Below, piece by piece: positions 3,252 to 62,067 of a DNA stretch of 64,000 nucleotides. Under the pieces are notes generated by a model. That model saw only the letters and a program-made list of their open reading frames with translations. It had not been told where the DNA came from and did no database searches. Location: positions 5,788,101 through 5,852,100 of the forward strand of contig NC_092677.1 of the NCBI RefSeq assembly GCF_964355755.1. The letters are read 5' to 3'. A program made the translations under genes and the position numbers. Within the stretch, counting starts at the first letter, position 1. Each line of letters begins with the position of its first letter. The stretch comes from Antedon mediterranea. Its lineage: Eukaryota; Animalia; Echinodermata.

Positions 3252-6200
3252 TTTTCATTTCATTTCATAATAACATTTATTTCCTTCATAATATACAAAA
3301 TAAATAATATAATACACAAAATTCATGACGAGAAGAAAGATAGTTAAAACAATACAATTTTTTTTTTTCTCATCTTTAACATGAATAAAACAATATTATG
3401 AAGGAGGCACAATTTCTAAAAAGCAAAAGCTTGTGTTGAAAGTGCCTGAACAAAACAAAAAGTAACTAAAATCAAATTAGTAAATAATAGTAAATGGTAT
3501 ATAGGAATAAAGTAATTACCATAACGGAATATGAAAACAATAAAAAACTGATTCCTAGAATATAACTAGTTAATTAATTTCCTTTTGTATTAGATATTGT
3601 TTAGTGTTAAAGACGAAGCTATGTTTGTTTGCAGAAGTTGTAATTTTGTTAGGAAGTGAGTTCCATATCTTGGGTCCAGTAAATCTAATATTATGTTGAA
3701 AAGAAGTCTTTTTATGTTTAGGAATATGAAGGTTATTGAGGATTCTTGTGGAATAGCCGTGAAATTCATAATTGGGAGAAAACATATCGCGTAAATGAGA
3801 TGGAAGAAGAGCATTTTGGCTTTTGTAAATAAATAAACATTGTTGGAAAATATTAATATCTGTTAATTTTAATAATTTGAGAGAACGAAATAAAGGATCT
3901 GTACTAGTTCTAGGTGAAACATTCGAAATTATTCGAATGATTTTCTTTTGTAGTATTTGAAGTTTATTTAAATTAGATGGGAATGTGTTACACCAAACGA
4001 TATTGCAATATAAAAGATATGGCAAAACAAGGGAGCAGTAGAGTGTTCGGAGAATATGATGTGGAAGAAAAGATGCCAGTCTACAAATTATACCAATATT
4101 TTTTGAGATTTTGTTTTCTGTCTCAATAACATGGGGTTTCCATGTCAGACGACTATCAATGGATACACCCAAAAATTTTGCATGATTGACCATGGGGAGA
4201 ACAGAACCATTTAGTTTAATTTGCAATGGACCTAATTTAATCGGCATCGTACTACTTCTAAACAAAACATAGCTGCACTTTTTTAGATTTACAGAAAGGC
4301 TGTTTGCCAGAAACCATTCGGATACATTAATTAAACTTGTATTTACAGTGTTAAATAACGACTCTAAGTGTCGATTTTTACAGATTAGTGTTGTGTCATC
4401 TGCATATAAAAAGTAAGATAAAGATACTGACGAATTGTAAATATCATTCACATATAAAAGAAACAGAAGAGGACCTAGTAATGAACCTTGTGGTACTCCA
4501 CAGGTAATAGGCAAATAGTCAGATTGGGAATCACAAAACTTGGTACATTGGTAGCGGTTAGATAAATAGCTCTTAAATAAATTGAGAGGAACACCGCGAA
4601 TACCATAGTGATACAGTTTTGAAAGAAGAATGGGATGGTTAATGGTATCGAATGCTTTCGATAGATCGACAAAAACACCAATTGCAAACTCATCATTTTC
4701 AAATGCATCTATTATTTCATTGGACAAATCAATTAAGGCCATTGCGGTATCAAAATGTTTGCGAAATCCAAATTGCTTATTGAATACAATATTATTTTTT
4801 TCCATAAAGGCATAGGTTCTATTATAGATAATTCTTTCTAATATTTTAGAAAATAGCGAAAGGACTGAGATCGGTCGGTAATTAGATAAAGTGTCCTTTT
4901 TTCCTGCTTTAAAGATGGGAGTAACTCTTGCCAATTTCAATTTATTTGGAAAAACTCCTTTTGTTAAAGACAGATTAAATATGTGACATAGAGGTTTAAC
5001 CAAAAGGGAAATTGATTGTTTAATAACTTTTGGACTGAATTCATCAAGTCCTTGCGCTTTATTAGTTTTAAAACACTTGACAATATCTATAATTTCTGTA
5101 TCAGACACTGGACACATAAATAAAGAGTTTAAAGTAGGTAAGGGCAAATACGTTTTAAAATCAGATTGATCGGTTGGCAATTTTTTTGAAAGAGTTGGTC
5201 CAATTTCGACAAAAAACTTATTGAATTCATTTGCGATTTGAGACGGGTCTTCAATGGATTCACCATTATTGCCTGTTAGAACAACTTTCGTATTCAAATT
5301 CGGAGACCTTTTAATCAAGGAGTTAATTACGCGCCAAGTACCTTTAATATCATGTTGACATTGAGTGAATCTGTTTTGATAGTATTCGGTTTTAACACGT
5401 TTAATAAGTAAATTTAAGGTATTACGGAATTTAGTGTATTTTATTTTATTATGATTGGTAGGATTATTTAGGTATTTAGCATATAACTTGTGTTTATATT
5501 TAGTAGATTGCAACAGACCATTTGACATCCAAGGTTTTAATTTTGTGTTTTTTTTACTTTGCGTAGTCATTGGAAAATGTTTATTATATAAAAGTTTTAA
5601 TTTAGTTTCAAAAGTATTATAAGCTTGATTAGGTTCTTGCAATAAGTTCACATCGTTCCATGTTATTACGCTAAGCTCTCGTTTAAATTGTTCGATGTTA
5701 TTTTCATTAATTTTCCTAAAAGGTTTATTTGGAGGTCTACTGACTGCTTGATTATTTTTGTATGTTAAGGTAGATATAGAAAAAACAGGTAGGTGATCGG
5801 AAATATCGCAATAGAGCTGACCACTAGCGAGGTGTAAATCAGGCTGGTTGGTTAATATGTTATCAATAAGAGTAGCACTATTTGATGTTATCCTAGTAGG
5901 TCTAAGTATTAGCGGTAAATAAAAGTTGCTAAAAAGAGTGTTTACAAAATTGTTAGTTGTGGTTTCATAAGTATATTGCAAAATATCTATATTGAAATCA
6001 CCCAACAGATATACCAGCTTATTTTCAGTTGAAAGAGTATGAAGTAGGTTATCTAGGATATCATTGAATGCATTGATATTCAAAGACGGAGCACGATAGA
6101 TTGTTCCCACGATGATATTTTTCCCATGTATCTGTTCTATTTCAATAAATATCGATTCACATATTGATTCATCTGTTGTTAAATCATTACGGACAGTAAC

Positions 6201-6898
6201 TGATACATTGTTTCGTACGTACAGGGCTACGCCACCACCCGCCTTAGATTTCCTATTTCTAGAAAAAATATTATAACCCGGCATATCTGTTAGGGGATTA
6301 TTTAAAACGTTTTAAAGAATCCATCTTGCCCAAGAGACTACGTGTATTAAAATGGATAGTAGACAAAATATTTTTATCATTGTTATGCTTAGAGAAATTC
6401 TCTGAGAATGTTTCTGGATCAAAATAATTAGATTCATTTAAACTAGCATAAACTTGAGAATGTGGATCAACATTTTCGTTAATATTCATGTTCTCGTATG
6501 CCACAAAGGGGTTAAATTTCACATCAGTTGTAGGGTTGGATTGGCACATTAATTATAGGTATCATAGATAATTTAAACATTAGGTAAAAGTTAACAATAA
6601 TATAATAAAATAAAAAACTAAATATAACAATAATTAAACATAAAACAATTCTGTTTAGTGCTGCCGTATTACTAATACATAGGTAGCGTAAGCGTTGCAC
6701 TCCCCGTGTATAAAACGGAGAATAATTCATTAGGTATGCAACCGGGTATGCAAAGGTATAATTTGCATAATGGTACGTAGCGGACATGCTTGGAATTTAA
6801 ACAAGCAAAGCCAGGTTAAGTATACTGACATTACAAAATGAAAGAAGGCAGAGAAAAAGAAAAAGAAACCATTCATATCCCAGTTCCTCAAAACACCG
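3252..6898 (-). mobile_element. 5'-truncated CR1/L2-group LINE
   Basis: Contains an APE+RT ORF. The 3' UTR ends in AATAAA and a short (TGAAA)n tail near 3252-3280 on the minus strand. Confidence 0.85.
3570..6284 (-). CDS. LINE ORF2: apurinic endonuclease plus reverse transcriptase, N-terminus disrupted
   Basis: 904 aa with GGGVALY, YRAP, GDFN, TLIDNI, SDHLPV (APE) and NYRPISVL, QFGFR, DLSKAFD, GVPQGSLLGP, YADD, FLGV (RT). The true N-terminus (HFNTRSL) is in the out-of-frame ORF 6298..6549, and the intervening ETW motif is missing. Confidence 0.92.
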   Translation of the reverse strand: MPGYNIFSRNRKSKAGGGVALYVRNNVSVTVRNDLTTDESICESIFIEIEQIHGKNIIVGTIYRAPSLNINAFNDILDNLLHTLSTENKLVYLLGDFNIDILQYTYETTTNNFVNTLFSNFYLPLILRPTRITSNSATLIDNILTNQPDLHLASGQLYCDISDHLPVFSISTLTYKNNQAVSRPPNKPFRKINENNIEQFKRELSVITWNDVNLLQEPNQAYNTFETKLKLLYNKHFPMTTQSKKNTKLKPWMSNGLLQSTKYKHKLYAKYLNNPTNHNKIKYTKFRNTLNLLIKRVKTEYYQNRFTQCQHDIKGTWRVINSLIKRSPNLNTKVVLTGNNGESIEDPSQIANEFNKFFVEIGPTLSKKLPTDQSDFKTYLPLPTLNSLFMCPVSDTEIIDIVKCFKTNKAQGLDEFSPKVIKQSISLLVKPLCHIFNLSLTKGVFPNKLKLARVTPIFKAGKKDTLSNYRPISVLSLFSKILERIIYNRTYAFMEKNNIVFNKQFGFRKHFDTAMALIDLSNEIIDAFENDEFAIGVFVDLSKAFDTINHPILLSKLYHYGIRGVPLNLFKSYLSNRYQCTKFCDSQSDYLPITCGVPQGSLLGPLLFLLYVNDIYNSSVSLSYFLYADDTTLICKNRHLESLFNTVNTSLINVSEWFLANSLSVNLKKCSYVLFRSSTMPIKLGPLQIKLNGSVLPMVNHAKFLGVSIDSRLTWKPHVIETENKISKNIGIICRLASFLPHHILRTLYCSLVLPYLLYCNIVWCNTFPSNLNKLQILQKKIIRIISNVSPRTSTDPLFRSLKLLKLTDINIFQQCLFIYKSQNALLPSHLRDMFSPNYEFHGYSTRILNNLHIPKHKKTSFQHNIRFTGPKIWNSLPNKITTSANKHSFVFNTKQYLIQKEIN

Positions 6899-19084: not shown

Positions 19085-21178
19085 ATGTCAACATTTGTAT
19101 TTCTGTACCTACTGTTTCTGATTGAACACGCCATCGGTAAGTTTTTTTCAGGTGTACAACAGAGAGAATCCTGCTCGGCATAGCCTCTTGCATATCTAAT
19201 ATATATTATTACATTATCTAATCTAAAACTAAACAACTAATGGTTGTTTGTTGAAGATGCGTTAATAAACAAACTCTTGCTCTAACATCACGTAATAGCT
19301 CAATAAATATACATTCTGATCAGAACGTCATAATTTCTTATTGTTATTTAAGATTTATAACATTAATTTAACCGTGTTATAATTGGGGTAATTGTATTTA
19401 TAAAGAATACTAATGCATTATATACAAATTATAAGAAATTGTATTTCTGTTATTGGCTGACCAGTTTCGAAAATGATATTTTCTCGACATTGGTATATGA
19501 CAAGAGTGTTTAACTCAGTAAATAAAGAGGAGGAGGGGAGGAGAATAGAGGGAAGGGAAGAGTGGGAGAGGGGAGAGAGAGAGAGAGAGAGGGTGGAGAT
19601 GATAAGGACATGGAGAGCGTGCATGAATTCGTTGAAAACCTGAACTTGTGCAAAAACATGATATCTGTACTCATTAATTGTTTCCAAATTAGCATTCTAA
19701 ATTGCTAATGTGGTGTTTTGTATCCAAGATTATTCTATTTATATTTTAGCATCAGATGTTATAATATCTGTAATTGAAGGTGAATCAATTACAATTCCTG
19801 CTGGAGGTGGTATTCGCAAGGACGAAATACATTCGATAAGTTGGTTTAAAGGTAAAAACATTCGTCATCAAGTTATCGTTAATTCTGTTAATCGTCAATC
19901 TGGCAGATTTTCGATTGTTAATGCCTATGGAGATTTGATGATACAAAATGTAAGCAGAGAGGATGCAGGATACTACACTGTTCAAGTTGTTAAAAGTGGC
20001 GAGGAAAATCAAGAGACCATGACATATCCCCTGGATGTATATTGTAAGTTTTAAAATATGTTTAATATTAGTATATCTTTAATTTAGATATTCTAAAATT
20101 AGATAAGTATACGTTTTTTGAATATTTACACTCAAATCAAATTTCAATTAAATGAAAACTTTCACAGGAGGATTAGAAAATATATAAGTTAAATTAATGT
20201 TTTAGTTATTTGCAGAATACTATTCACAAGGTTATTACAATGACATTTCTTCTTATTCTTATAAGAACATTCTTTGTTCAGTTTTTAAAATACCCATATT
20301 TTGTAACATACATTTATATTCAATTTGAGTTAGCAAAGATACCGTATGAATTCACAGTTAATGCATGCCAATGTCATCACAAAAGACATAAAGAGTGGCA
20401 CCCCATAACGTAGGTCGGCTAAACTAGTTGTGCCCTAGACCGTACTAGCCGTTTGTTCCGTGTACAATAACGCAGTACACCCTTTGGAAAAGAGAAGGGG
20501 ATCGTCTCTCGGTGTACTGCCCAATATACCAACAGCAGGACCTCTACAGACTTAGTGGGCTATACTTGGTGTATAACACTAAAAAAACAACACAAAAGAT
20601 AAAACAAGTAGGCTTATTACTATATGTCCTTCTTTTCTATCGCAGATATGGATTTTCCAACTCTTACATCGAACACTAAAAATAATAACGATAGCAAGTA
20701 TATTATATTTCACTGTCAATGGAGTGAAATATATCCCAAAATGAAACCGAACGTTACGTGGATACAAAATGGAAATTTACTTGACCCCAACACAATTAAA
20801 TACAAAGGAAGTAATACTATAATAAATAGGGTTGTTTATCAAGTGTCTGAAAACGACTATGGAAACTATGCTTGTCGTGTCACTGTTGAAACAATGGCAG
20901 GAAATATGAACTAGAAGAGCAGTGTCGAAGAAATTACGCAAAGTAAGTACAGTATTTACAATCAGGCATTCTTACATAGAAACCGTGTTTTTTATTATTA
21001 TTGTCAATAGGAATTTGAAAGGTTTTATCTACACTAACTCTTTTTAAATAGTAAACATTGATTTTTTTCAGTTGCTCTGGATTTAACCTCACCAACGGGC
21101 ATATTGACTACAGTTTTAATATTAGCTGTTATCGCTTCGTTCGCCATTGGTTATTTTGTAGTAGCAGGTTTTCTTTAT
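19085..21178 (+). pseudogene. Gene 2: SP-V-C-TM unit with an in-frame stop in the C exon and no tail exon of its own
   Basis: SP 19085-19136 (MSTFVFLYLLFLIEHAI), V 19750-20043, C 20646-20942 with TAG at 20912-20914 where the paralog has AAG, TM 21072-21178. It is followed directly by the gene 3 SP exon. Confidence 0.8.
20385..20580 (+). repeat. Degenerate SINE-like fragment in the V-C intron (paralogous copy ~22930-23140)
   Basis: Two diverged copies of a GC-richer segment containing GCACATTAAAGAACGCAGTACACTCTTTGAA, reminiscent of conserved SINE central domains. The family is not certain. Confidence 0.4.
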
Positions 21179-21387
21179 GTAAGTATAAAGATAAATTATG
21201 TGAATTGATTAGAACGGCCAGAATATATTTGCTCCCCACCCATAGAATTCGCCCCTGGATATGTGACGCGATTAATTATTGTAACAAGTATTCCCAGTCA
21301 ATAGTTGATCATAGCATTGAGAATGACAAGCAGTATTTAAAATGTTATCAAAATAAAGGAAATGTTTTCTTTTCTACTACATAGATT

Positions 21388-24300
21388 ATGTCAACATTTG
21401 TGTTTCTGTCCGTACTGTTTCTTATTGAAAATGCAATCGGTAAGTTTTGTTCAGGTGTAAAACAGAGAGAATCCTGCTCGGCATAGTCTCTTGTACATCT
21501 AATATTATTATTACAAAAATACGAATAATGGTTGCTTGGCGAAGATGCGTAAGAAACAAACTATTGCTCTAACTTCACGTAGTAGCTAGCTCAATAAAGA
21601 AATAATTATTCCCATCCTTACTTGAAATAATGCAAATTTAAAAATCTAAGATGTCTTAAATCAAACCGCGTAAAATAACCGCGTTATAATTATATATTAA
21701 TAATATTATATTTATAAAGAATACTAATACATGTACAAATTATATGTTATAAAAATTATGTTATATTGGCTGACCAGTTCCGAAAAAGAGACCATTTTTA
21801 CATAAATATTTTTCTGTTTACTTAAAACAAAAGATTTGGTTACTTCAGTGTGCATAGCTATGTAATTTCTATAGGAGGTGGAGAAGGGAAGAGTGGGCGG
21901 GGATGGGAGGGAGGAGGGGGAGAACGTGCGTGCGAGTGGCAACTGACTGCGAAAGGAAAATTGTATGCAACACAATACCTTATTGTTCATTTAATCATGG
22001 ATCCTTAATCCATGATTTAATGCACATGAGTGCGGCGCGTACATATCGGTGACCATCAAAATACCGAAATTAGTATTTACTGTTCTATGATGATCTATTG
22101 TTCATCATCCGGGTTGTCGTGGCGGACTACATAACACAATGTCCTGGTCTGGTAGTTTGTATTAGTCATTAATTGTTTCTGAATTAGCACTCTAAATTGC
22201 TAATGTGGTGTTTTTATCTCAGATTATTCTATCTATATTTTAGCAATACTATCGATAATTGAAGGTGAAACAGTCACAATTGCTGTTAGAAGTGGTATTC
22301 GCAATGACAAAATACATACGATAAATTGGTTCAAAGGCGAAGAAATAAGTGTAAATCTATTTATCCTTAATTCTGAAGCAAGTAAATCTGGCAGGTTTTC
22401 AATAGTTAATGCCTATGGAGATTTGAGGATACAAAATGTAAGCAGAGAGGATGCAGGGTACTACACAGTTCAAGTTGTTGAAAGTGGCGAGGTATATGTT
22501 GAGACCATGACATATCACCTGAATGTATATTGTAAGCTTTAAAAAATGTTTAATAATTTTTAATTTAGATATTCGAAAATAAGATCATTATACGTGTTTT
22601 TCAACAATCAAATTTCAATTGAAATGAAAACTTTCACTTAAGGATTAAAACAATTAGAAGTTATATTAATATTTTGCTATTTGCAGCATACTATTCACAA
22701 GGTTATTAAAATGATATTTCGTCTTATTCTTATAAGAACATTCCTGTAAATACGATTTATGTGGGAAATATGTGGGAAATTCTTTGCATATCATTTCGTA
22801 TATGGTCTAAATGTTTTGTAAAATTATTTTTTGCAATAACTTAGAAATATTTGTGTAAACATGTACTGTATTTATATTCAATTTTAGTTAGCAAAGATAT
22901 AGATTCACCAATTCTCTGCAATGTGATCACAAAGGACATGAAGAGCGGCATTTTACGTAGTCGGCTAAACTGGTTATGCGCTAAACCGTTGGTCCCATGT
23001 GCAACATGGCCAATGTGCACATTAAAGAACGCAGTACACTCTTTGAACAAGATTAAGGGATCGTCTCCAGATGTGCTGCCAAATTTACCACCAGCAGGAC
23101 CTCTACGGTCTTAGTGAGCTATCCTGGGTGTATAACACTAAAAAAGAAACCAACATCACAAAAGATAAAACAAGTACGCTTATTACTATAATTATGTCCT
23201 TCTTTTCTATCGCAGATACGGATTTTCCAACTCTTACATCGAACATTAAAGATAATACCGATAGCAAGTATATCATATTTTACTGTCAATGGAGTAACAT
23301 ATATCCCATAATGAAACCGAATGTTACGTTGATACATAATGGAAATACACTTGACACCAACACAATCAAATACAAAGGAAGTAATAATGGAGTAAATAGG
23401 GTTGTTTATCAAGTGTCTGAAAACGATTATGGAAACTATGCTTGTCGTGTCACTGTTGAAACATCAGTTGGAATTATGAGCAAGACGAGCAATGTCGAAG
23501 AAATTACGCAAAGTAAGTATTTAAACCATGTTTTTTTTTAAATTATTATTGTGAATAGGAATTTGAAAAGTTTTATTTACACTAAGTCTTCTTACATAGT
23601 AAACATTGTTCTTTTTTCAGGTGCTCTGGATTCAATTACCTCACCAACGGGCATATCGACTACAGTTTTAATATTAGCTGTTGAAACATCAGTTGGCATT
23701 ATGAGCAAGACGAGCAATGTCGAAGAAATTACGCAAAGTAAGTGTTTACAATCAGGCATTTGTTACATAGAAACCATGTTTTTTTTTATTATAATTGTGA
23801 ATAGGAATTTGAAAGGTTTTATTTTCATTAACTCTTTTTACATAGTAAACATTGTTTTTTTTGCAGGTGCTCTGGATTCAACCTCATCAACGGGCATATC
23901 GACTACAGTTTTAATATTAGCTGTCATCGCTTCATTCGCCATTGGTTCTTTCCTGACTTTTGTAGCAGCAGGGTTTCTTTATGCAAGTATAGAGATAAAT
24001 TATGTGAATTGATTAAAACGGCCAGAATTTATTTAGTAACATCAAAATTTGAAAAATACCTCTATGGAAGTACTACATACATATCAAAACAAAAAAGATA
24101 CAGAAACAACAAAATAAAAAGACACCGTGTTTGATAAACTGGCACTACTCATGCTTCTAGATATCGGTGGCGAATCCAGGATTTTGAAAATGGCGGCGGG
24201 GGGGGGGGGGGGGGGTTTTGCAGGGTCTAAAAGTAGTGAAATGAAGTTCTTAACTTAATTTGATGTACTATCCTATGCATTACACATTGTGAAAGCTAGA

Positions 24301-25059
24301 GGTGGCCCGGGCCGGGAGGCTGGGTAGGCAGCTCCACACCCCACCCCTTGAACCCCTCCTGGATAAGTGACGCGATGAATTATTGTAACACAATACATTT
24401 ACTTTAAAGCACAATGCAGATTATTACAATAAGATCTAAAGAGGCAACATATAACATCAGTAGAACATTTCATATTGGGATTGAGCGAGTTGCTTCTAAA
24501 AAACACGTTTCCTCATCACTGCGATCACACGTGAGAATATGAGTACCAAGACTTCTCAAATAATTCATCGATTGCAAACTCTTTACAACAAACTGACGTA
24601 CTAGTTGCTGGAGTATAGAAACTGTTAGAGTTATAAAAGCAAATCAAGATCCTTAGCGATAAATTAATATGATATAATATGCCAACTGTTTGTACTAAGA
24701 AACTTGATTTGGCCGATTTTTGTTGTGAACTTTACAATATTTAGTTAAAAGTAATAAGGTTGCAATGCAAATTGTTATTGAAATTACAACCTAAAAATAC
24801 GATTTGATTAGTTAACAATCCAATGTTAAAATCAGTTGTTATCGCTTCAATCGATCTTAGACTAAGTTGCTAATTATGATTGTGAAACAATGGTATTAAA
24901 TAAAATCGACAGCAATAAGAAACTTACTTTCACTCAAATGATACATTATTGTTTTTACAGAAAAGACGATTAGGTCTGAAAGAAAACAAGTCTAAAGATA
25001 ATGACCTCCAATATCAAGACATGCAATATGCGTCACCCCTTCTCATTACCAGGAGCTAA
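21388..25059 (+). CDS. Gene 3: SP-V-C-(chimeric stalk)-TM-tail receptor with a GC donor after TM and a frameshifted tail
   Basis: SP 21388-21439, V 22244-22531, C 23216-23512, chimeric exon 23621-23737, TM 23867-23982 (donor GCAAGT), tail 24961-25059 KRRLGLKENKSKDNDLQYQDMQYASPLLITRS*. Confidence 0.72.
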
Positions 25060-26933: not shown

Positions 26934-28274
26934 TATAAAAATACATTAAATAAAAAGTTAAAAAGCCGGAAGCGCGGCTATATTATTATGTTTTATCAAC
27001 GTGTTTATGTTTTCTAAAATAATTGAAACTGAAATATAACGTAACAATATGCAGAATACACGTTGTGATACTGTATCACAACGTGTATTCTGCATATTGT
27101 CGTTGTCATGAATAAACCGGTAAGTTTTTATTATCTTTTTTATTTTATTTATCAATATTACTATTAAATTAACAATTGTTAGAGGAATTCTAACGTAAGA
27201 GAAGAGTTGTTTTTCTCTGGTCGTTTTCTGTTTAGACCAAATTAACAAAGACAAAGTATTATAATTATACTGAAAGATAAAAGATAATAATCTCCCATCT
27301 GAAATATATATAATATTTTTCTACTATGTCTAGCTACTATGAGGACGATCAAAGCACATTGATCGAAACGTCTAGAAACTCAACAGTTCTTTTCAAAACT
27401 GATATACGTGGTGTATCGCAAACTTTATATCAACATTTGATTTCGCCATGCAAACCTTCAAACAATATTATAAAAATATTATTAATAAGCGTGAAGATAA
27501 AAGACTTTCACATAGTTAAGTGCAGTTGCCATTCGCCGTAGCGGATCTATTATTTTGAATTAGTAAACTTCGTAAACTTATTAGCAAAATCATTGTTAGC
27601 ATTTGTAGCTTTCCCGTCTCCCTTAGATCTGCCTGTGATTTCTAATATAATGAGAATGATACAAATACAGTGCAATGCAAGTATGCGAGTACTATTTTCA
27701 TTTTCTAAGATAGATTGAACCATATGCGACTTGTTTGTGATCAAACAATGTAACATGAACAAGATTGACTTATAAAAAGAGAGAAATATTCACAAGATCA
27801 CTTCAATTCAATATCTAATTCATTTTAGTTGGTGACTTAAACATGACTTAAGTTGGCCTGGCTTCTATACCACAATATAAAACAACAAATACATGCTAAC
27901 CTTCTATAAAATGGGTATTGTCAGTATAGCACAATAACAGATCAAAATACAATTGCAAATTGATTTAATTAATTAAAATAATTGAATAATTGAATACCAT
28001 TAAAAAGTAGTGTAAAAATACTGATAGTAGTGATGATGTGATAATGACTCATTGAAAAAAAAAACCTCAGAAAATAAACATATCATAAATAATAATGAAT
28101 CGGTAGCAACTAAATATGCCAGGTTGCAAAATACTGGGTGGCAAATGAAGGTGGCAATTTTTGTTGAGAAGAGGGCGGCTAAGAATTCCCAGTAGTTGGT
28201 CATAGCATTGGAAATGACAGTATTTAAAATGTTAAAAAAATGAATGAAATGTTTTTTTTTCTACTACATAGATT

Positions 28275-30239
28275 ATGTCAACATTTGTGTTTCTGTCTCT
28301 ACTGTTTCTTATTGAAAACACAATCGGTAAGTTTTTTTCAGGTGTACAACGGAAAGACCATTGTTCTATAACTATTTGTTGTGTTTACTTTAATAAAAAA
28401 AAAATTCAGTAAATAAAGATTTGGTTACTTCAGTGTACATATCTATATATCAGGGAAGGAAGAGGGGAGAGGGAAGGGAGAGGGGGAGAGGGGGAGAAGG
28501 AAGGGAGTGGGGCGGGAAGAGTGGGGAGAGGGGAGGAGAAGAATGAGAAAAAGGGGAAGAGAAGAATGAGAAAAGGAGGAGTAGGAGAGCGTTCGTGCGG
28601 GTGGCAACTGAATAAAACAAGGAAATTGTTATGCAGCACAATACATTCTTCAAACTAGGCATAATAATAATTGTGTTCGTCTTATTGAATGTACATAATA
28701 GGAATGCGGCTCTTATATATCGATGACCATAGAAATACCGAAAACTGTTCTATGATATATTGTTAATCATCCAGGTTCTAGATAAATATTCATAACACAA
28801 TTATATTCATAACGTGAACTTATTTACAAATATTAACTTATTCTTAATCATAATTCGTTCAAACCAGAACTTGATATCTATAGCCATTAATTGTTTCCAA
28901 TTTAGCATTCTATATTGCTAATTCTATTTATATTTTAGCCTCAGATGTTATACTATCTGTAGTAGAAGGTAATTCAATCACAATTCCTGGAGGTGGTATT
29001 CGCATTGACAAGATACATGCAGTAAGTTGGTTCAAAGGTGAAAAAGCATATCAATATCAACAAGGTATCGTTCATTCTAACAATCGTCAATCTGGCAGAT
29101 TTTCGATCGTTAATTCCTATGGAGATTTGATGATACAGAATGTAAGTAGAGATGATGCAGGGTACTACACTGTTCAAGTTATTGAAAGTGGCGAGGAACT
29201 TAGCGAGACCAACACATATCACCTGGATGTATATTGTAAGAATAAAAAAATGTTTAATAATATTAGATCTTTAATTTAGATATTCTAAAATTAGATAAGT
29301 ACGGTATATGTTTTTTCAACATTTACAATACCAATCATATTTCAATAAATGAAAACATTCACTTAAGGATTGAAACAAATTAATATTACATTGATAATTC
29401 TTATTATTTCTTCCTATTCTTATAAGAACATTCGTGTTCTGTTTTTAAAATACTTACATTTTGTGTAACACTATGTTTTGTAATAACTTACATACATTCA
29501 TGTCAACATGTAAAACATTTATATATTAGATCTTAGTTAGCAGAGATATATATTTACCGATTCTCTGACAGTTAATGCATGCAATGTGATCACAAAAGAC
29601 ATATAGAGAGAGGAATAGCGCAGTCCGCTAATTGAGGCAACATTTAACATCAGTAGAATATTTCATATTGAGATTGAGCGAGTTGCTTCTAAAAACTATC
29701 ACACATGAGAATACGAGTACCACGACCTCTCAAATAAATTCATTCTCGATTGCAAACTCGTTACAAACAAATACCGTACTAGTTGCTGGAGTATAGGAAC
29801 TATGAGACTTATAAAAGCAAACATTTAATATGATATAATATGCCAACTGTTTGTACTAAGAAATTTGATTTGGCCGATTTTTGTTGTGAACTTTACAATA
29901 TTTAGTTAAATGTAATAAGATTGCAATGCAAATTGTTATTGGAATTACAACCTAAAAATACGATTTGATTAGTTTAACAATCCAATGTCAAAATCAGTTG
30001 TTATCGCTTCAATCGATCTTAGACTAAATTGCTAATTATGATTGTGAAACAATGGTATTAAATAAAATCGACAGCAATAAGAAACTTACTTTCACTCAAA
30101 TAATACATTATTGTTTTTGCAGAAAAGACGAGTAGGTCTGAAAGAAAACAAGTCTAAAGATAATGAACTTCAATATCAAGACATGCAATATGCGTCACCT
30201 CCTTCTCATTACCAGGAACTAAAACCCAGTAAGAAATAG
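28275..30239 (+). CDS. Gene 4: SP-V-tail unit lacking C and TM exons; predicted secreted single-V protein (or pseudogene)
   Basis: SP 28275-28326, V 28939-29235, tail exon 30123-30239 (KRRVGLKENKSKDNELQYQDMQYASPPSHYQELKPSKK*). A deletion junction at ~29632 fuses the V-C intron to the post-TM intron. The V-to-tail splice creates T|AA, a stop codon. Confidence 0.7.
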
Positions 30240-33071
30240 ATCACACGAAGGCGGAAAAATGTCAATACGTATGCAATTTCAAGATGACAAGATGACAATT
30301 TTCCTGAACACGTTTTATATTAAGTTCTCATTTACTTATAGATTTAATAGTAGGGGTATGAAAAGGTATGTAAAAACAAAAACGATTCTATACTAAAACT
30401 TAAATTAATAATTGTAATTTATAATGAACCACGCCTTCTACTAAACTACCTACATTTTTAAAGTTGATATAGTGCCATTAACAAAAATAATGATAAAACA
30501 TGCATTAATTATTTCTGTAAATAATGTACAATAAAAATAATAATTCAAACAGCGCAAACTAGAAGTAGGCCTAATGTGCGTTATGTTTTTTCCACTAGTC
30601 AAATTTGCGAATCGAAAGCGTCAGCTTACACGCATGCGTGTATTGTAAAGCGAAACAAATATGCTAAACCAATCAGAGCTCAGGAAATTAGTTATGACGC
30701 TTCACTTATGCAAATCTTAAATCTCAGCAGCAGACACGCGATATAAATGAAAATCGCAGCTATCGGTCTTGTAGCGCGATTGTTTTCTCTGTAAAACATT
30801 TGGGAACTAAATTCCCTGAGTGTAAAACGGGCTTTTGGTAAACGTGTAAAGGTAATGTAAGGTAGAGGATAATTCTACAAAGTAGTAAAAACAATATAAG
30901 TTATAACTAAAGTGAGAAGACAAACTAAATGAAAAGATATGTTCTTTGATAGAAGAAGCCTACATATTTGAATAGTTCAAATACAATAATCAATATAATA
31001 GTTAAGGTTATCATATTACTAGTTATAACTCTATTATGTTTTAAGCATTTTGATTTTTTTATATTCTTTAGTTAACATTTTTCATTATAACGTCTTAAGT
31101 GTAGTCTTTTTGCAAAGGCAAGATATTCTATGAATTCAATCTTGGATTTCAACATGGCGGTTGGAATATAATATTTAAAACTTTGATAGCAATGTATATG
31201 GAATTCTATAATATAATAAACATGGGTATAGAAAACAATTCTAAACTGCAATTCAAATTACCAAAAACACATTTAACTTAATTATTTGCTTTTATTTGCT
31301 TTTAACATAAAATGCCTACAGCATCTGACGGATGGTGGTGCTAATGCTTTAGTGATTTATTGTAATAATTCCTATAAAATAAATGTCCTCAAAACATAAA
31401 CAATAAAGATGAATAAATCAATCTTCATCATTTTGTAGTTACAGTAAAGTTATTCACTTCCAGAAGAAACAAGGCCATTTAGATGGCTGCAGTCGCGTGC
31501 TCAAGTTAGTGTTTACCGACCAACCGACCGACATACTGAGCTGTAGAGTCGCGTTGTACGCGACTAAAAAGAAAGCAACAAAACCATCATATCATAAACG
31601 ACAAAATACAGTTAATAACAAAAAACCTTTTTTGATTATCCAATACATAACATGTCTGTTGGACTTAACTTGAGGATTTATTCTCGAGCATTTGCTGGTC
31701 AACAAAATTAAATAGTAATAGATGAGAACGTGTACCGTGACATCTCGCTGTTGCTGTAGCAAAAGCTTGAATGTAATCAGCAAAAATATATTATATAAAA
31801 CGTAAAATTACTTGTAATAGTTCAACGTGATTGTGTTGTGTTTCCTACATTATTGAAAGTGCAATACAAACTGACTGCACGATCACAACGAGTATTCTAC
31901 ATATCATCGTCGCCTTGACCGCACTATCACAACGAGTATTCTACATATCGTCGTCGCCTTGGCATTATTCCGTGGAATGAGTCGGTAAGTGTTTATTTTT
32001 TAGTTTACTCCTACTTTTTATTTATCAACATATTCACATTGTTAGAATGGGATTTTCACGTAAACGAAGAGGTTTGTACACTTTTATCTGGTAATGTGGC
32101 ATATTCACTTCCACAAGAAGTGAATGATGGAGTAAGAGCAGTTTTCTGTTTGGGCTCATGCCTATTACTTGCTCCTGGCAAGATGAATTGTAAAATGTAC
32201 TTTATGAACTTTTGCCGAATAAATATTATTATTATTATTATTATATATTGTTTAATTGATCTAGACCGAAAATAATAATGATAAAGTACGTCAATAAGAT
32301 ATCAATCTACTATATACAAACAATGTGCCTTTCTCATAGGCCGACTTTTTTTTTCACACGTGCACAACTTTATTTAAAAATTGCTTTTCCACAACATGCA
32401 TAAATAAAAGATCTATTTCTGATTTAAAAATCTGGTTTTTGTTTTTTATTTTGTAGTGGCACTACTACACTTATTGTGAAAAAAAGATTATATCTAGAGT
32501 CTTTTGACTATTTATAATTATGTATATTTGGGTAAATAATGTGAGGTTGAATAACGTTTCACAGTCGAAAAATAATATATACAGTAGGCTGTTTCCAATG
32601 AGAAAGAATACAATTACAATTGCAAACTCTTTCCATTTTCTAGTTGGACCCAATTGTGATTGTTAATGTAATTCAACAAACAAAACAAAACAATTTTAAA
32701 TCGTTAAGAGATATGTTAAAACTGACATCCTTTTAAAACAAATGCAAACAACAAATACGTTGCTGGTGCACATATGCCCAACAATACAATGCCACACCAG
32801 TGATAACATTATTACTAGTAATGAAATCTCTCCATTTCATAAATACTAGTCATTCATGATGGTTTTTTGAAATATATTGGAGCATCAGTATTGTATTTTT
32901 AAATAATCTTATAGAAGAAAATAACAGTTATGTATACATTACTTTGGTACATGCTTGAATAATAATTTGATTTGAAATCAATTTCCTCTATTTCGAAAAT
33001 TTGGAGTAAACTGTCATCGTTATTAAATCTAAAAACTGTATAAAGATAATACTTTCTTTCTCCTATAGATT

Positions 33072-38367: not shown

Positions 38368-39050
38368 ATGGCAACATATATGTTTTTGCTCTTTCTCATC
38401 CAACAGACGACAGGTAAGATATCATTGTAATAAAGTGAAGAAAATTGATGGGGTGGGGTTGTGAATTGTGTCAGTTTCGCCCCTCGGCCGAAAAAAGTGT
38501 TATTTGTCTAGTATAAAGATATGATACAAGGAATGAAAGTACCTGGAAGGATCTACTACCGTATTCGATATCGACACCGGTGGACCTTTTTGCAGAGTAA
38601 ATTGAAGTGGTGAACTACGATATATCAGTGAATTTTTGACAATATTATGTGTACAGGTATTTAAATATTAATTTCCCACATTGCTTCTGTTACCTACAGA
38701 AAAGAAGAGCATCAGTAGAAATTCATTCTAAACAAGATCTACAATACCAAGATGTGCAACTTTCTTCATTCCCCTCCGTGTACATCGATTCTAACATAGA
38801 CAACGGTGTTATCTATGCAAATACAGAGGCCGGCAATATGTCGGATAGGTGGCCGAAGGAAGACGGAGCCGGCAAAATGCTGGATGCGTGGCCCAAGGAT
38901 GACGTAAGCAGGAACATGGCGGATGAATTGCCAAAGGGCGGCGTTACGGTGAAATTTTCGGATGCGTGGCCAAAGAGCGGCGTTACGGTGAACATGTCGG
39001 ATGCGAGGCCGAATAAGGATGAACTCAATTATGAAGTTGTGAATTATTAG
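38368..39050 (+). pseudogene. Gene 6 relic: SP exon plus an intact tyrosine-motif tail exon, with all Ig and TM exons missing
   Basis: SP 38368-38413 (MATYMFLLFLIQQTT, gtaag). Tail 38700-39050 reads KRRASVEIHSKQDLQYQDVQLSSFPSVYIDS...VIYAN...LNYEVVNY*. Only 286 bp separate them and the phases are incompatible. Confidence 0.72.
38832..39026 (+). repeat. Coding 39-bp (13-aa) tandem repeat, 5 copies
   Basis: GNMSDRWPKEDGA / GKMLDAWPKDDVS / RNMADELPKGGVT / VKFSDAWPKSGVT / VNMSDARPNKDEL. Confidence 0.88.
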
Positions 39051-45539: not shown

Positions 45540-47125
45540 CTTAAAGGGCTACTGAAAGACACAAGCGAACTATGCTGTTTTCTAACTAATAGTGATATAT
45601 TATATTAAAAATAAAAGTAAACTTTTAATAATGCAAAAATTAACATTCTTAGACCGAATAATTTGTTTGTCTTATTTCGGAGAAAAGTTTTTTTTTATCT
45701 AAGTAGGAAGGTGTCGGCCAAAACATTAGTGTCGCAAACAGTACGGCAGTTAAAACAAAATCATTTGCATTGTAATTTAAATGATCACTAACTCAGAGTA
45801 GATTAGTAAACAATGGTGTACTTATTAACGGTAATGATACACTTTTACTTTCACTCCATATTGCATTATTGCTATTTTTCTTACAGAAAAGACGAATAAA
45901 AGAAATCCATATTCTTCTTTCTTATTCTGTCTTATTCTTTCTTATTTCTTCATTTCCATTCATCATACATATTCATAAACATACATAAAAAAGAAACAAA
46001 GAGAAAAAAAGAATGGAAAGGGGGAATCTCGAAAGCATAGATTTATAGAAGAAGAAGCTAACTTGCTTTTTACTTTAAATTAATACAGACTATAAAATAT
46101 AAACAATTTAAAAAAAGCTTTTTTTCCTTAAGCAATATCGTTTAAATAATGATTATAATTATACTCCAGGAATAATTGATTGTTTTTTTTAAATCATGCA
46201 ATTATGAAAAATGTAATAAAAAAGAAAACATATACATGTGACTAACTGTTACGTTGCTCCGGTTTCTACTGTAAAGCTCAGTCTACTTATTAAACTTTAT
46301 GTGACAAGAAAATGTGATGTGCCCATATATGGACATTATGATGTCATTTCACTACAATATTTGGGCATATCACTACTATATTATTTAGGAACTACATTTT
46401 AATCAAACTAGTTTGATAGTGTAGACAGAGCTTAAAACAAGCTAACGTGTATTAGAATGTTCGTCCCAACACATGCGTTTTGTATGGTGTCCCAGTGTGT
46501 GTATTCTGCAGAGTTTTGCTATGCATGTAAAACGGGTATTTGTTCTCACTTTAATGTCATACAAAGTACAATTTATGTTACTGGAGGGCAGCGCAAAAAG
46601 CCAAGACTGGTATATAAGGTATATAAAAATTACCGGAACATCAAAATAATTTGATTACCCCTTCCGGACCAGCAGAGACAAGAAAGACCGGGAAATCTGA
46701 AACTTAATTTGATGCCTCTCGGTATCCCAACATGCAACGGTACGACCGACCACCGCCCTCCGCGACACAACATTATCTTTTATTGTGCCTATGAAAAATG
46801 TTGTTATCTTCATATAAAAAGTGTATCTATAATAACATTAGGCCATTATGTGCTTAGAGAACCGTTGCTTTTTCAAGTTTAGTCTAGATTTCAATTGGTT
46901 GTGTATAATAATATGTACATAATTATAAATATTATAAAGATTATAAAGATGTTGATAGTTACTAATTATTAATATCATTTATCTAATAAGTGTCAATCTT
47001 TAAAACATTGCAATATTTGTATTATTACTTATATTTGGTTGATTGATATGGGAGTTTTAAACATTTCCAGTTCCGGTTATTTTTGTTTAGGCCTACCAAA
47101 TACGACATTAAAAAATTGTTCTTCT
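45540..47125 (+). pseudogene. Relic 3' end of a gene-8-like paralog (post-TM intron, truncated tail exon from 45887, 3' flank)
   Basis: TTCTTACAG|AAAAGACGAATAAAAGAAATCCAT matches the gene 8 tail start (61364) and then breaks off into unrelated sequence. The flanks are colinear with ~60285-62850. Confidence 0.7.
46275..46432. mobile_element. Short Harbinger-like MITE family (copies also ~34479-34610, 37735-37833, 39208-39332, 61858-62011)
   Basis: TIR approximately AGCTCTGTCTACACTATCAAACT, a shared internal GATGTGCCCATAT.TGGACAT segment, and TAA on both flanks of this copy. Confidence 0.7.
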
Positions 47126-50100: not shown

Positions 50101-50941
50101 GGACATTATCGATGTGACAATGACTATTACGACGGCGACTTTTATCGACGGTTCACCAAGTTGGTAACATCAGAAGTCGCAAAAATGTTAACATTAATAA
50201 CAAGTGAACCATAACTCCTATTTATAGATATGGCAACATATTACCTGTTCTTGATATTTCTTTGTCAACCGACGATAGGTAAGATTAATTGAGAAAAGTT
50301 TATTATTATGTTTGAATCAGTTATTATTATTAGTCAAGGGAAAAATGGCAAATAGCTTCCTACTTTCCAGGAGTTTTATGTTAGTTAAGTTATCAGAGAG
50401 TCTATGTTGTTTTTGAAAACTCTGTAACATGACCACAGTCCTGATTTTGCTTAGAGTTATCGTTTTTAAGATCAAATTGATATGCTTTATTTGTAGTCTC
50501 AGGTGTAACACAATTGTCGATAATCGAAGGCGAAACTACACAAACCAACAGTGGTGTTGGTAGTCTATGAGTGCCGCTTACCTGGATAAACCAACATAAG
50601 CCTCTCTCTCCGACGAGAGGTAAACATTACGAAAAGAAGAACATTAATAACATTAATTTTTCCCCACCCCCGTCGGATAATGGATCAGTCCGCCACCAGT
50701 ACGCCCTCAAGTGAGACACACCCACTTATCATCGTCATCATTTCTCAAGACCACCTGCCTGAGGGGACGGTAGGGAGGGCGTTTATCCAGGTAAGCGGCA
50801 CTCATAGACTACCAACACCACTGTTGGTTTGTGTAGTCTATATCGTGCCTAGCTTACCTGGATAAACCAACATAAGCCAGTGTAGCACCGGACTAGAGTC
50901 TAGTCGGAGGCGGGAGGTAAGGTAAACATTGTCATACATAC

Positions 50942-53809
50942 CTAGTGTCTGGGCTTCAAGATTGAAGCCGCCACCGTAGACTGGTTTGCGGAGGTATCCG
51001 ACAGGTAGTGGGATGTGAAAGTGGACTGTGATCGCCACCATGCCGCTTGCAGGATGTCTGGAAGGGGCACCCCAGCAAACAGCGCCCATGAAGCGGCTAT
51101 GCCACGCACTTGGTGCATATGTGCCGGAGGAGGCGTATTTGTGGAGTCGTAACCAGCCCGGATGGCTGCCACGACCCAGTTTGCCAGCGTCGACCGAGCA
51201 GCCGGTCGGAAGGGTGCAACTGTCGATACGAACAGATGTGACGCTGAGACCCGAATGGACTCTGTGCGTTTGATGTAAAACTTTAGTGCCCGCACCGGGC
51301 ACCAAAGTCTGTCTTCCTCAACCCCTGAACATGCAGCAATGGTGGGAATAAACACAGTCGGCGGCGAGAAGTTCAATGTCTGAGATTTTGCAAGGAAATA
51401 TTTTCTAAAAACCAACCGCGCGCCACCCCGTTCAAACCTGATGTGCCCTGGCTCCAGAGAAAGAGCATGCAGTTCACCTCTGCGCTTGCACGAGGCTAGT
51501 GCAATCAAAAAGGCAGTTTTGAGAGTCAGGTTGTAAAGTGATGCCCTACTCAGGGGCTCGAAGGGTGGACGCATAAGAGCGGCTAGGACGACATTGACGT
51601 CCCAACGTGGAATCAGGGCCTTAGTAGGAGGCCGTTCTCGAAACATCCCGCGAAGCAAACTGGAAATTGCAGGGGATGAAGAGATGGTCGAGCCGTCCTT
51701 AAAATTCGGAATTACTGCACCCAAGGCAGACCGATAGCCGGATACGGTGCGAACCTGCAGACCTGACTCAAACAGGTAATGTAGGAAAGCGCAGACCTGG
51801 CCCAAAGTCACTTTCATAGGGTCGGTCTTCTGGCGCTTGCACCATTTGAAAAAGTGTTTTAATCGGCTATTGTAGACAGCAAGAGTGGATTCCCGTCGGG
51901 ATTTCGCCGCGAGGGCGGCCGGGCCATCTGGAATGCCTGAGTCTCTGAAGCGATTCCTGACAATGGCCATACAGTCAGGTCGAGGGATATGAGGTTCGGT
52001 AGAGCAAACCGAGCTCGGCCCTGCGTCAGCAAGTCGTTCCGAATCGGAAGACGTAACGGCTGATCGTACAGAAGGCCTAGTAGCAGTGGAAACCACGGCT
52101 GCCTGGGCCAATACGGCGCTATTAGTAGGACTCGGCATTGATGGCGCTGAATGTGCGTCAGGACCAGTGGCAGTATTGAAAACGGTGGAAAGGCATATGC
52201 CCAAAGGTTGTCCCATGGTATGGACAGGGCATCCACCGCCCACGCATGTGCATCCCGATATCGACTGCAGAACGTCGGGAGCTGCGTGTTGCCTGACGTC
52301 GCAAACAGATCTACATGGGGCCGCCCAAAGTGGTTGAAGATCTGGGTGGCGATTATTGGAAGAAGACGCCATTCCGTAGGACGTAGAAGTGGACGGGACA
52401 GTGCGACCGCCACTATGTTCAGACGACCCGCAATGTGGGCCGCTGACAGTTGGATGTTGTGTCTTATACACCACATTAGCAACGTCCACGTGTGGCAACA
52501 TAGCGTGGGGGACCGTGTACCCCCTTGCCTGTTTATGTATGCCACGACGGTTGTGTTGTCGGAATTGACGAGAACATGGCGATTTGCCAGATGGGGAAGA
52601 AGAGCCTCCAATGAGCGCTCGACTGCCCAAAGTTCGAGCAGGTTGATGTGGGCGCGCGTCTCCTCGGGCGACCAGAGGCCGGAGACGCGAATGTCCGGAG
52701 ACGGAATGTGACCGCCCCAGCCTACTTTGGATGCGTCCGTTTCCACACGGACATCCGGGATTGACCTTTGTATAGGTGTGCCCACAAGTAACCTGTCTTC
52801 CACGAGCCACCATTCGAGATGCGAGATAATGAACGCATTCGTTGGAACCACTTTGTGTAGAGAGTCTGATCTTGGGCGGTATGCTGCCAGAAGGTGCAGA
52901 TGTAGAGGCCGCATCCTTAACCGGCAGAACGGAACGAGGGCGACGAAGCTGGCCAGTGACCCCAAGGTGCGTAGCCAGTCGTATGCCGTCGGAGCCTGAG
53001 CATTGATAAGATGTAGCACTGCAGTTCTTGCCTTGGCCACACGCTCGATGGATGGGCACGCACGGCCCGTAACCAAATTTATTTGGGCTCCGAGATACAG
53101 AGGGTTCTGAGAAGGGAGAAGACATGACTTCTCCTCGTTTATTATGAACCCTGCTTGTTCCGTCACGAGGCGGACAAAAGATAAGCTGCTCAGCAGCTGG
53201 TCCCTGGACTGGGCCACGATCAACCAATCGTCTAAGTACATGAACACTCTGATGCCGTGTTGATGAAAGAACGCCGCCAGGGTTCTCACTAGACGAGTAA
53301 ACACTCGTGGGGCCGTTGAGAGGCCGAACGGCAGAGCTACGAATTGGTATACCTGATCGTGAATGCGGAAGCGCAGCCAACTCTGGTGTTCTTGCGCAAT
53401 AGGCACGTGAAAGTACGCGTCTTTCAAGTCTATTGTCGCTGCCCAGTCCCCTCGTCTTAGCCCCAACAGGATAGATGAGACAGTCTCCATCCTGAACCTG
53501 CGGGGCCGAATGTACCGCTTGTTCAGACTTTTGAGGTTTAGGATGGGTCGCCAATCGCCCGATTTTTTCTGGGCGAGGAAAACGGTGGATTCGTGTCCCG
53601 GGATCGTAAGTTGTTCTTTTTGAACATGCACCACAGCTCCTTTCTGGAGCAGTGCTTCGAGGCCCGTCATGAGCGCATGACTCTTTTCCGGCTCTGACGG
53701 AATCCTCGTGTGCCGGGCACCTCCGCTCACCGGAGGGCTCGAGAATTCGATACAATACCCGTGTGTCACGGTGGAGAGAACCCATCTGTCTGTGGTCAGG
53801 GTCTCCCAA
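50942..53809 (-). CDS. DIRS tyrosine recombinase ORF (YR in the C-terminal ~340 aa; the N-terminal part overlaps pol in another frame)
   Basis: SRRESTLAVYNSRLKHFFKWC (core-binding region), LKTAFLIALASCKRRGELHAL (catalytic R), CPVRAL, HQVRG (HxxR), AAWWRSQSTFTSHY (catalytic Y). Confidence 0.9.
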   Translation of the reverse strand: MGDPDHRQMGSLHRDTRVLYRILEPSGERRCPAHEDSVRAGKESCAHDGPRSTAPERSCGACSKRTTYDPGTRIHRFPRPEKIGRLATHPKPQKSEQAVHSAPQVQDGDCLIYPVGAKTRGLGSDNRLERRVLSRAYCARTPELAALPHSRSGIPIRSSAVRPLNGPTSVYSSSENPGGVLSSTRHQSVHVLRRLVDRGPVQGPAAEQLIFCPPRDGTSRVHNKRGEVMSSPFSEPSVSRSPNKFGYGPCVPIHRACGQGKNCSATSYQCSGSDGIRLATHLGVTGQLRRPRSVLPVKDAASTSAPSGSIPPKIRLSTQSGSNECVHYLASRMVARGRQVTCGHTYTKVNPGCPCGNGRIQSRLGRSHSVSGHSRLRPLVARGDARPHQPARTLGSRALIGGSSSPSGKSPCSRQFRQHNRRGIHKQARGYTVPHAMLPHVDVANVVYKTQHPTVSGPHCGSSEHSGGRTVPSTSTSYGMASSSNNRHPDLQPLWAAPCRSVCDVRQHAAPDVLQSISGCTCVGGGCPVHTMGQPLGICLSTVFNTATGPDAHSAPSMPSPTNSAVLAQAAVVSTATRPSVRSAVTSSDSERLADAGPSSVCSTEPHIPRPDCMAIVRNRFRDSGIPDGPAALAAKSRRESTLAVYNSRLKHFFKWCKRQKTDPMKVTLGQVCAFLHYLFESGLQVRTVSGYRSALGAVIPNFKDGSTISSSPAISSLLRGMFRERPPTKALIPRWDVNVVLAALMRPPFEPLSRASLYNLTLKTAFLIALASCKRRGELHALSLEPGHIRFERGGARLVFRKYFLAKSQTLNFSPPTVFIPTIAACSGVEEDRLWCPVRALKFYIKRTESIRVSASHLFVSTVAPFRPAARSTLANWVVAAIRAGYDSTNTPPPAHMHQVRGIAASWALFAGVPLPDILQAAWWRSQSTFTSHYLSDTSANQSTVAASILKPRH

Positions 53810-53877
53810 ACCCGTGAAAACCGTTTCAAGCGACCCCCCACCTGCCCGCCCTCGCTTGGAGGGACGGGCGCCCCCAA
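51859..53877 (-). CDS. DIRS pol: reverse transcriptase, RNase H and adenine-methyltransferase-like domain
   Basis: VGGRL, WRPILNLK, IDLKDAYFHVP, LPFGLSTAP, YLDD, TDAS..GWG, HINLLEL, SDN, then DLFAT...YAFPPF...PYWPRQPWF. Confidence 0.95.
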   Translation of the reverse strand: MGAPVPPSEGGQVGGRLKRFSRVWETLTTDRWVLSTVTHGYCIEFSSPPVSGGARHTRIPSEPEKSHALMTGLEALLQKGAVVHVQKEQLTIPGHESTVFLAQKKSGDWRPILNLKSLNKRYIRPRRFRMETVSSILLGLRRGDWAATIDLKDAYFHVPIAQEHQSWLRFRIHDQVYQFVALPFGLSTAPRVFTRLVRTLAAFFHQHGIRVFMYLDDWLIVAQSRDQLLSSLSFVRLVTEQAGFIINEEKSCLLPSQNPLYLGAQINLVTGRACPSIERVAKARTAVLHLINAQAPTAYDWLRTLGSLASFVALVPFCRLRMRPLHLHLLAAYRPRSDSLHKVVPTNAFIISHLEWWLVEDRLLVGTPIQRSIPDVRVETDASKVGWGGHIPSPDIRVSGLWSPEETRAHINLLELWAVERSLEALLPHLANRHVLVNSDNTTVVAYINRQGGTRSPTLCCHTWTLLMWCIRHNIQLSAAHIAGRLNIVAVALSRPLLRPTEWRLLPIIATQIFNHFGRPHVDLFATSGNTQLPTFCSRYRDAHAWAVDALSIPWDNLWAYAFPPFSILPLVLTHIQRHQCRVLLIAPYWPRQPWFPLLLGLLYDQPLRLPIRNDLLTQGRARFALPNLISLDLTVWPLSGIASETQAFQMARPPSRRNPDGNPLLLSTIAD

Positions 53878-53881
53878 GCCG

Positions 53882-61285: not shown

Positions 61286-62067
61286 TAATGGTGTACTTAT
61301 CAACGGTAAAATGATACACTTTTACTTTCACTCTATAATGAATCATTTATATTTTTCTTACAGAAAAGACGAGTAAAAGAAATCCATACTAATCATAAAA
61401 GTCACCAATATCAAGACCTGCAATTTGTTTCCAGTCCCGCTATTTACAATACAACGATATATCCTATAACAGACGACAACGTTGCTACCAATCAATACGC
61501 TGACAAAATGTCGTATACGCCGTGTCCTAAGCCTAACGTTGATTATCAGAATGTGACGAACTAGTCTAACTTGCTTATTACTTTTTATTAGAGAATCGGG
61601 GGTGGGGGAGGGGTGTTTTTTATATAATGTATAATTGTATATATAACTAGAAAATCAAATTCTTTAAATTAATACAGGCTATAATATACACACATTTAAC
61701 AAAAGCTTTTTTTCCTTAAGAAATATCGTTTAAGCATAATACATGCTCAAGGAATAATTGATTGTTTGTTTGAAATAATATAATTATGAAACATGTAATC
61801 AAGAAAACAAATATATAAATTTGATTAACTTTAGCCTTGCTCCAGTTGATACTGTAAAGCTTCATTATCAAACTTTATGTGACAGAAAATGTGATGTGCA
61901 TGCATGGATATTATAATGTCTTATCACTACGATATTTGGGCATGTCACTACCATATTTGGGCTCATCGCATACTTTTTTGACAAACTAGTTTGATAGTGT
62001 AGACAGGGCATAAAACAAACTAACGTGTATTAGAATGTTCGTCAAAACACATGCGTTTTGTATGGTG

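Follow-up and report, generated by a model that had tools for sequence, protein, structure and literature searches.

Loss of the C and transmembrane exons from one gene of a crinoid immunoglobulin receptor cluster: an expected secreted single V domain, likely the product of ordinary gene-family turnover

The N-terminal IgV domain of CEACAMs does without a B-F disulfide. According to the available parts of two accounts, CEACAM genes for a single secreted V domain arose in horses and expanded in bats, and the bat V domain is under positive selection (PMC5594555, PMC2832619). The second of these accounts, in its available part, also describes an Arg-Asp salt bridge within the N domain, ligand contacts on the CFG face and, for the CEACAM1-type tail, several exons and a TEHKxS motif (PMC2832619). 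In decoy/receptor CEACAM pairs, the N exons are held close by gene conversion, and a turtle receptor and its putative decoy are 95.8% identical at the nucleotide level, as given in the accessible part of the report (PMC13278318). The human KIR2DS4-del is a soluble truncation for which the accessible part of the source records no ligand (PMC6601252).

We analyzed a window of 64,000 nucleotides from the feather star Antedon mediterranea, a crinoid; the window carries Ig receptor genes arranged in tandem on the + strand. The receptor family spans positions 10119-61564 of the window and is of the V-C-TM-tail type without the canonical V disulfide: the basic unit consists of a signal peptide (SP), a V-set domain lacking the canonical cysteine pair, a C-type Ig domain, a transmembrane (TM) exon and one tail exon. 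Genes 2, 3, 4 and 6 match RefSeq protein models of Antedon mediterranea on a 28.6-Mb contig, and relatives of the family identified in Anneissia japonica (three proteins checked) extend it to two crinoid genera. The automatic RefSeq names of the neighbors of gene 4, assigned by similarity, are CEACAM6-like and CEACAM7-like. Strict ITAMs, by the consensus Yxx[I/L]x6-9Yxx[L/I] as it appears in the available part of PMC9546547, are present in two of the eight tails (genes 1 and 5). We found no description of this crinoid family or of gene 4 among the papers listed by the literature searches. A LINE-type element with a long endonuclease and reverse transcriptase ORF lies upstream of the cluster on the minus strand (3573-6311).

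The nine loci or remnants of the cluster comprise three genes that are open end to end (gene 1, 617 aa; gene 5, 541 aa; and gene 6, 343 aa), gene 3, which is membrane-bound with a frameshift in its tail, and five broken loci: gene 2, gene 4, a remnant at 38368-38700, an orphan tail at 45887, and gene 7. Three of these loci recur in the comparisons with gene 4.

19085-21179, + strand: gene 2, SP-V-C with an in-frame TAG at 20912 near the end of the C exon, then a TM exon; lacks its own tail exon
21388-25059, + strand: gene 3, SP-V-C-duplicated stalk-TM-tail, delimited by its RefSeq model and tblastn
38368-39050, + strand: remnant locus, with only 286 nt between an SP exon (38368-38413) and a long tail exon that starts at 38700; V, C and TM exons all missing

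The SP exon of gene 3 starts about 200 nt past the TM exon of gene 2, and a first exon and a tail may be common to both genes (19085-21390). Within gene 3, the stalk exon is duplicated (23621-23990), and a GC donor follows the TM exon. A 1-nt difference shifts the reading frame of the gene 3 tail, with loss of the second tyrosine motif (25035-25059), which is kept in the unused tail of gene 4 (30197-30239); a contig from public sequencing run X3 matches the gene 3 version of the tail without gaps. Gene 7 carries a retroelement in its first V exon and a frameshift in its last C exon. This element (50571-55892, minus strand), which we take to be DIRS-like, has inverted terminal repeats, a reverse transcriptase and a tyrosine-recombinase-like ORF. 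The orphan tail exon is disrupted (45887-46489), and its 3' flank is similar to that of gene 7 (61364-62067).

Gene 4, the focus of this analysis, has the following parts.

27108-27119, + strand: 3' end of the upstream exon, with an in-frame ATG, four codons, and donor GT at 27120; homologous to the upstream exon of gene 5
28272-28326, + strand: signal-peptide exon, second ATG at 28275, phase 1; 11-residue hydropathy peak of 2.3
28939-29235, + strand: V-set Ig exon, 297 nt, no cysteine, one N-glycosylation sequon; phase 1, last base T
29236-29631, + strand: new intron, portion left of the join; homolog in genes 2 and 3: post-V intron
29627-29634, + strand: the join, with a short CTAA(A) common to both break ends in paralog sequence
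29634-30122, + strand: new intron, portion right of the join; homolog: gene 3 post-TM intron, starting at 24441
30123-30239, + strand: former cytoplasmic-tail exon, whose leading AA completes TAA
30530-30535, + strand: candidate poly(A) signal, the first AATAAA past the stop

The absence of the C and TM exons, first noticed in a reading of the sequence alone, was borne out: the join at 29631-29634 links the post-V intron to a gene-3-like post-TM intron. The SP and V exons are intact, as that reading held (ATG at 28275, donor at 28327, V open over 28939-29235). It had further placed a gene-5-like, non-coding first-exon donor at about 27120. The donor is real and gene-5-like, the region aligning to the upstream exon of gene 5 with a score of 186 (best of 200 shuffles, 104), but the exon is not strictly non-coding because it includes an in-frame ATG at 27108 that the RefSeq model uses. 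Location of this donor inside a high-copy repeat was discounted in view of single-copy depth at 26977-27205. Immediately upstream of it lies a 57-nt near-perfect palindrome (27044-27100); the matching region of gene 5 contains direct repeats of a similar unit.

The splice sites of gene 4 fall inside or near the family range in a splice-site matrix trained on 25 donors and 25 acceptors, of which one of each scores below zero, the acceptor being a misplaced gene 3 TM site and the donor probably misplaced as well. Among the 41 AGs of the new intron to which it was applied, this matrix gives the acceptor at 30123 the highest score (16.3 bits, compared with 8.4 for the next). Joining 27108-27119, 28272-28326 and 28939-29235 to the leading AA reproduces, letter for letter, RefSeq XP_071958567.1, an uncharacterized Antedon mediterranea protein of 121 aa derived from an automatic model. 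Because 30123 is the strongest acceptor and is the one used in the RefSeq model, we infer that the V exon is spliced there. RNA support behind the model is suggested by its inclusion of a four-codon upstream exon and of a stop split by an intron. The gene 4 product is already known, then, as an automatic model, without interpretation there. A search of the new intron for a cryptic TM exon was negative: none of the 21 YAG acceptors opens a TM-like stretch, and the best 19-residue hydropathy is 0.69, against 2.5 for real TM exons. The old tail frame, unused in this product, is still open over 38 codons and reads YxxM-x8-YxxL, an ITAM match solely if Met is allowed.

Splicing at 30123 combines the phase-1 T of the V exon with AA into a TAA at the domain end, so that the protein terminates in ...YHLDVY. 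The clean stop is thus real, but its reading as a sign of design did not hold up, since the exon ends of the family yield such a stop by default. All nine V exons examined end in a phase-1 T, which follows from the Tyr codon that spans the V-C junction in genes 1, 2, 3, 5 and 6; most family tails begin with Lys/Glu-Arg-Arg in phase 0. When placed after a V exon ending in T, five of the eight tail acceptors give TAA, one gives TGA, one adds nine residues, and one, the phase-1 tail of gene 6, stays in frame. With nine of nine V exons ending in T and six of eight tails producing an immediate stop, the tidy end comes from the way exons of this family end rather than from adaptation of gene 4. Beyond its TAA, the gene 4 frame meets a further stop after 10 codons, and read-through of the V intron would add 14 residues, one of them a cysteine. 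Junction-dependent nonsense-mediated decay is not expected when no exon junction lies downstream of a stop; the gene 4 stop is followed by none, so the transcript would escape this pathway.

The predicted product (hereinafter V4) consists of a hydrophobic leader and a domain that has one sequon but neither a cysteine nor a TM-like stretch. It scores 36.5 bits against the Pfam V-set profile (cut-off 26), and its structure model (mean pLDDT of 87, from a 9-row alignment) reaches TM scores of 0.7-0.8 to V domains. By fold, V4 is matched best, and at similar scores, by CEACAM N domains, TIM-4, TIM-1 and CD84; by sequence, its best PDB matches are CEACAM1 and CEA. By profile and by modeled fold alike, V4 is an Ig V-set domain. 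Given the signal peptide and the lack of a TM segment, a secreted single V domain is the expected outcome of gene 4.

Left of the join, the match to gene 4 ends at 22968 in gene 3 and at 20422 in gene 2; right of the join, it resumes in gene 3 at 24441. Therefore, gene 4 lacks about 1.47 kb that gene 3 has, including the C, stalk and TM exons. At the join, gene 4 reads CTAATTG, and the break ends of the paralogs share CTAA(A), which suggests microhomology-guided joining over 4-5 shared nucleotides, the paralogs standing in here for the ancestor. The two flanks differ in their divergence from gene 3, with 48 differences in 349 columns on the left and 25 in 483 on the right (Fisher p 2e-5); in 120-column windows, differences number 11-22 left of the join and 3-14 right of it, with the minimum over 29879-30240. 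Because the right side is about half as diverged as the left, either a simple deletion would have been accompanied by gene conversion of the 3' part of gene 4, or an older 5' half would have been fused to a younger copy of the gene 3 3' end; the outcome would be equal. The open old tail frame was considered as a date for the loss and discarded, given that 76% of simulated tails are still open after four random changes.

On balance, we lean towards gene 4 being a by-product of cluster turnover that likely secretes a lone V domain without a selected role. In this scenario, a tandemly duplicated crinoid receptor gene of the V-C-TM-tail type would have lost its C and TM exons, likely by microhomology-guided breakage and joining, after which the V exon would be spliced onto the old tail exon at 30123 and the lone V domain secreted. 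With five of its nine loci or remnants broken, the cluster is turning over heavily, and internal losses recur in it without a useful product, as indicated by the remnant at 38368-38700, which lost V, C and TM together: SP-to-tail splicing there would give 25 residues and no Ig domain.

The evidence that counts against a mere by-product, namely, the intact SP, V and splice sites, the confident fold and a RefSeq model of the exact product, also favors the principal alternative, a possible but doubtful one, whereby gene 4 is a working soluble receptor whose V domain would be released into the coelomic fluid and bind a microbial or self ligand as a decoy, opsonin or adhesion blocker. Strong splice sites that add zero residues past the domain, the proximity of the fold to CEACAM N, TIM and CD84, the variable C-C' region, and intact relatives with strict ITAMs would all suit such a receptor. 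The clean stop does not count in its favor, being the family default. Neither does the comparison with membrane-bound paralogs: the V4 exon is 83% identical in nucleotides (234/282) and 64% in amino acids to that of gene 3, the nearest of these, far from the 95.8% nucleotide identity of the turtle pair in the accessible part of its report (PMC13278318), and is 76% identical in amino acids to the truncated gene 2. Within the window and the protein databases searched, no membrane receptor was found whose V is as close to V4 as in decoys of the CEACAM3 type. Furthermore, the homogenized tract, with the least divergence from gene 3, lies over the dead tail of gene 4 and not over the V exon.

Word-limited searches of protein databases returned no protein closer to V4 (2 matches among 80 longer proteins, 1 of 2 of near length and 1 of 447 by alignment), the near-length and the alignment matches both being the product of gene 4 itself. 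The same alignment search, covering proteins of 47-189 aa, thus yielded no second V-only relative. The dN/dS of the V exon is 0.82 (0.39-1.73) between genes 2 and 4 and 1.03 (0.55-2.14) between genes 3 and 4; values of 0.8-1.0 with such wide intervals, which span 1, are uninformative, drift and mixed selection not being separable. The differences of V4 cluster in the C-C' region, with 11 in the best 13-residue window relative to gene 3 (permutation p 0.008) and 8 relative to gene 2 (permutation p 0.068). This clustering resembles a diversified binding face but may predate the loss.

Thus, of the "soluble receptor or decoy" originally proposed, the secreted single V is expected from the splice sites, SP, fold and RefSeq model, whereas the decoy role, for which there is no positive evidence, is not supported, because the nearest anchored V is only 64% identical, the low divergence is over the tail, no V-only relative was found, and a neighbor underwent a larger, useless loss. 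Gene 4 is likely an outcome of the usual turnover of gene families and not a decoy shaped for that role. The most far-reaching proposal appears improbable: it holds that crinoids have a CEACAM-like family of ITAM receptors without the V disulfide, with exon ends that make a clean secreted V of any V-to-tail join, and that one such join made gene 4 a soluble decoy, now fixed and expressed, which would be a non-vertebrate invention of the PSG type.

We consider it very unlikely that V4 is mainly a spare ectodomain exon, which read-through transcripts would splice to the gene 5 V (33558) or C (34136) acceptor to form a membrane-bound ITAM receptor with another tip. Phase 1 is shared by both sides of every V4-to-gene-5 junction, and gene 5 has an uninterrupted frame and a strict ITAM, but such splicing would skip the strong acceptor at 30123, several AATAAA signals and the first exons of gene 5 itself, and the RefSeq product ends at V.

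Four of the ten public sequencing runs listed were compared with the window; X1 and X3 come from one sample, which may be the source of the assembly. A DNA contig of X3 ends at 29634, to judge from its distance-to-end values, with a depth of 285, about twice that of the contigs covering genes 2 and 3 (146-161); this is what either a heterozygous join or an ordinary fork would produce, and is a weak hint of polymorphism. Another weak hint comes from a contig of X5, from a second organism, that matches 29433-29621 and continues with 36 unmatched letters, although its orientation is inferred and it may represent a paralog. Run X8, guessed to be RNA, yielded spliced gene 3 contigs, including the V-C junction, and an unspliced contig over 29933-31316; its zero depth over 28373-29725 is no evidence on gene 4 expression, as these contigs show presence only. 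An assembly artefact as the source of the missing C and TM exons is the least credible explanation: it would fit the end of the X3 contig and the fact that, among the matches listed, no contig crosses the join by 31 letters in both directions, but each flank is 5-14% diverged from genes 2 and 3, so these are not collapsed copies, the X1 contigs over 28268-29296 and 30168-31496 match with zero differences, which also argues against a collapsed copy, and the source contig is 28.6 Mb long.

As a by-product of turnover, the gene 4 lesion exemplifies the usual route by which tandem Ig receptor clusters produce soluble forms and pseudogenes; if fixed and functional, gene 4 would be an echinoderm parallel to the secreted CEACAM/PSG decoys. 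The parent family carries more weight than the lesion: V-C-TM receptors without the V disulfide, some with ITAM tails, and with a CEACAM-N-like fold are candidates for ITAM signaling in echinoderm immunity and bear on the question of whether CEACAM-like receptors are older than vertebrates or evolved twice. In addition, the exon-end rule predicts that skipping of C and TM in intact paralogs would produce soluble V isoforms.

The crinoid receptors are not established members of the CEACAM family: their V without cysteines and its fold are consistent with it, but their single-exon tail is not. V4 shares the absence of cysteines with the CEACAM N domain, although TIM and CD84 folds score as well. 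It has R53 and D72, the latter invariant in nine of nine rows, as candidates for the Arg-Asp salt bridge, but such a pair is a feature of V domains in general. Genes 1, 3, 5 and 6 have a single tail exon, and TEHKxS is absent from the eight translated tail exons. In a 15-row tree of V domains with vertebrate CEACAM N domains, 9 of the 12 inner branches are open, and the family is not placed.

Compared with KIR2DS4-del, which the available part of the source describes as a 22-bp frameshift and a known allele of a vertebrate NK receptor (PMC6601252), gene 4 lost whole exons. The predicted gene 4 product has the composition of the PSG-like CEACAMs of horse and microbats, a leader and one IgV without a membrane anchor, and like them, to judge from the parts of the accounts at hand, derives from V-C-TM receptors in a tandem family that includes members with tyrosine motifs, with V4 folding like CEACAM N (PMC5594555, PMC2832619). 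As described there, however, PSG-like CEACAMs owe their origin to stops or lost donors in the C exon and occur in expanded groups, whereas gene 4, a single case, lacks the C and TM exons altogether; the C-exon stop of gene 2 is nearer to their mechanism. Where such groups comprise secreted paralogs with a positively selected V, the crinoid family presents one V-only protein in 447 and dN/dS intervals spanning 1. Among invertebrates, the Hydractinia Alr genes (e.g., Alr6.3) resemble the crinoid cluster in being tandem genes for V-set receptors with ITAM tails, and the accessible part of their description includes many pseudogenes (12 of the models) and TM-less isoforms that may be secreted (PMC9546547).
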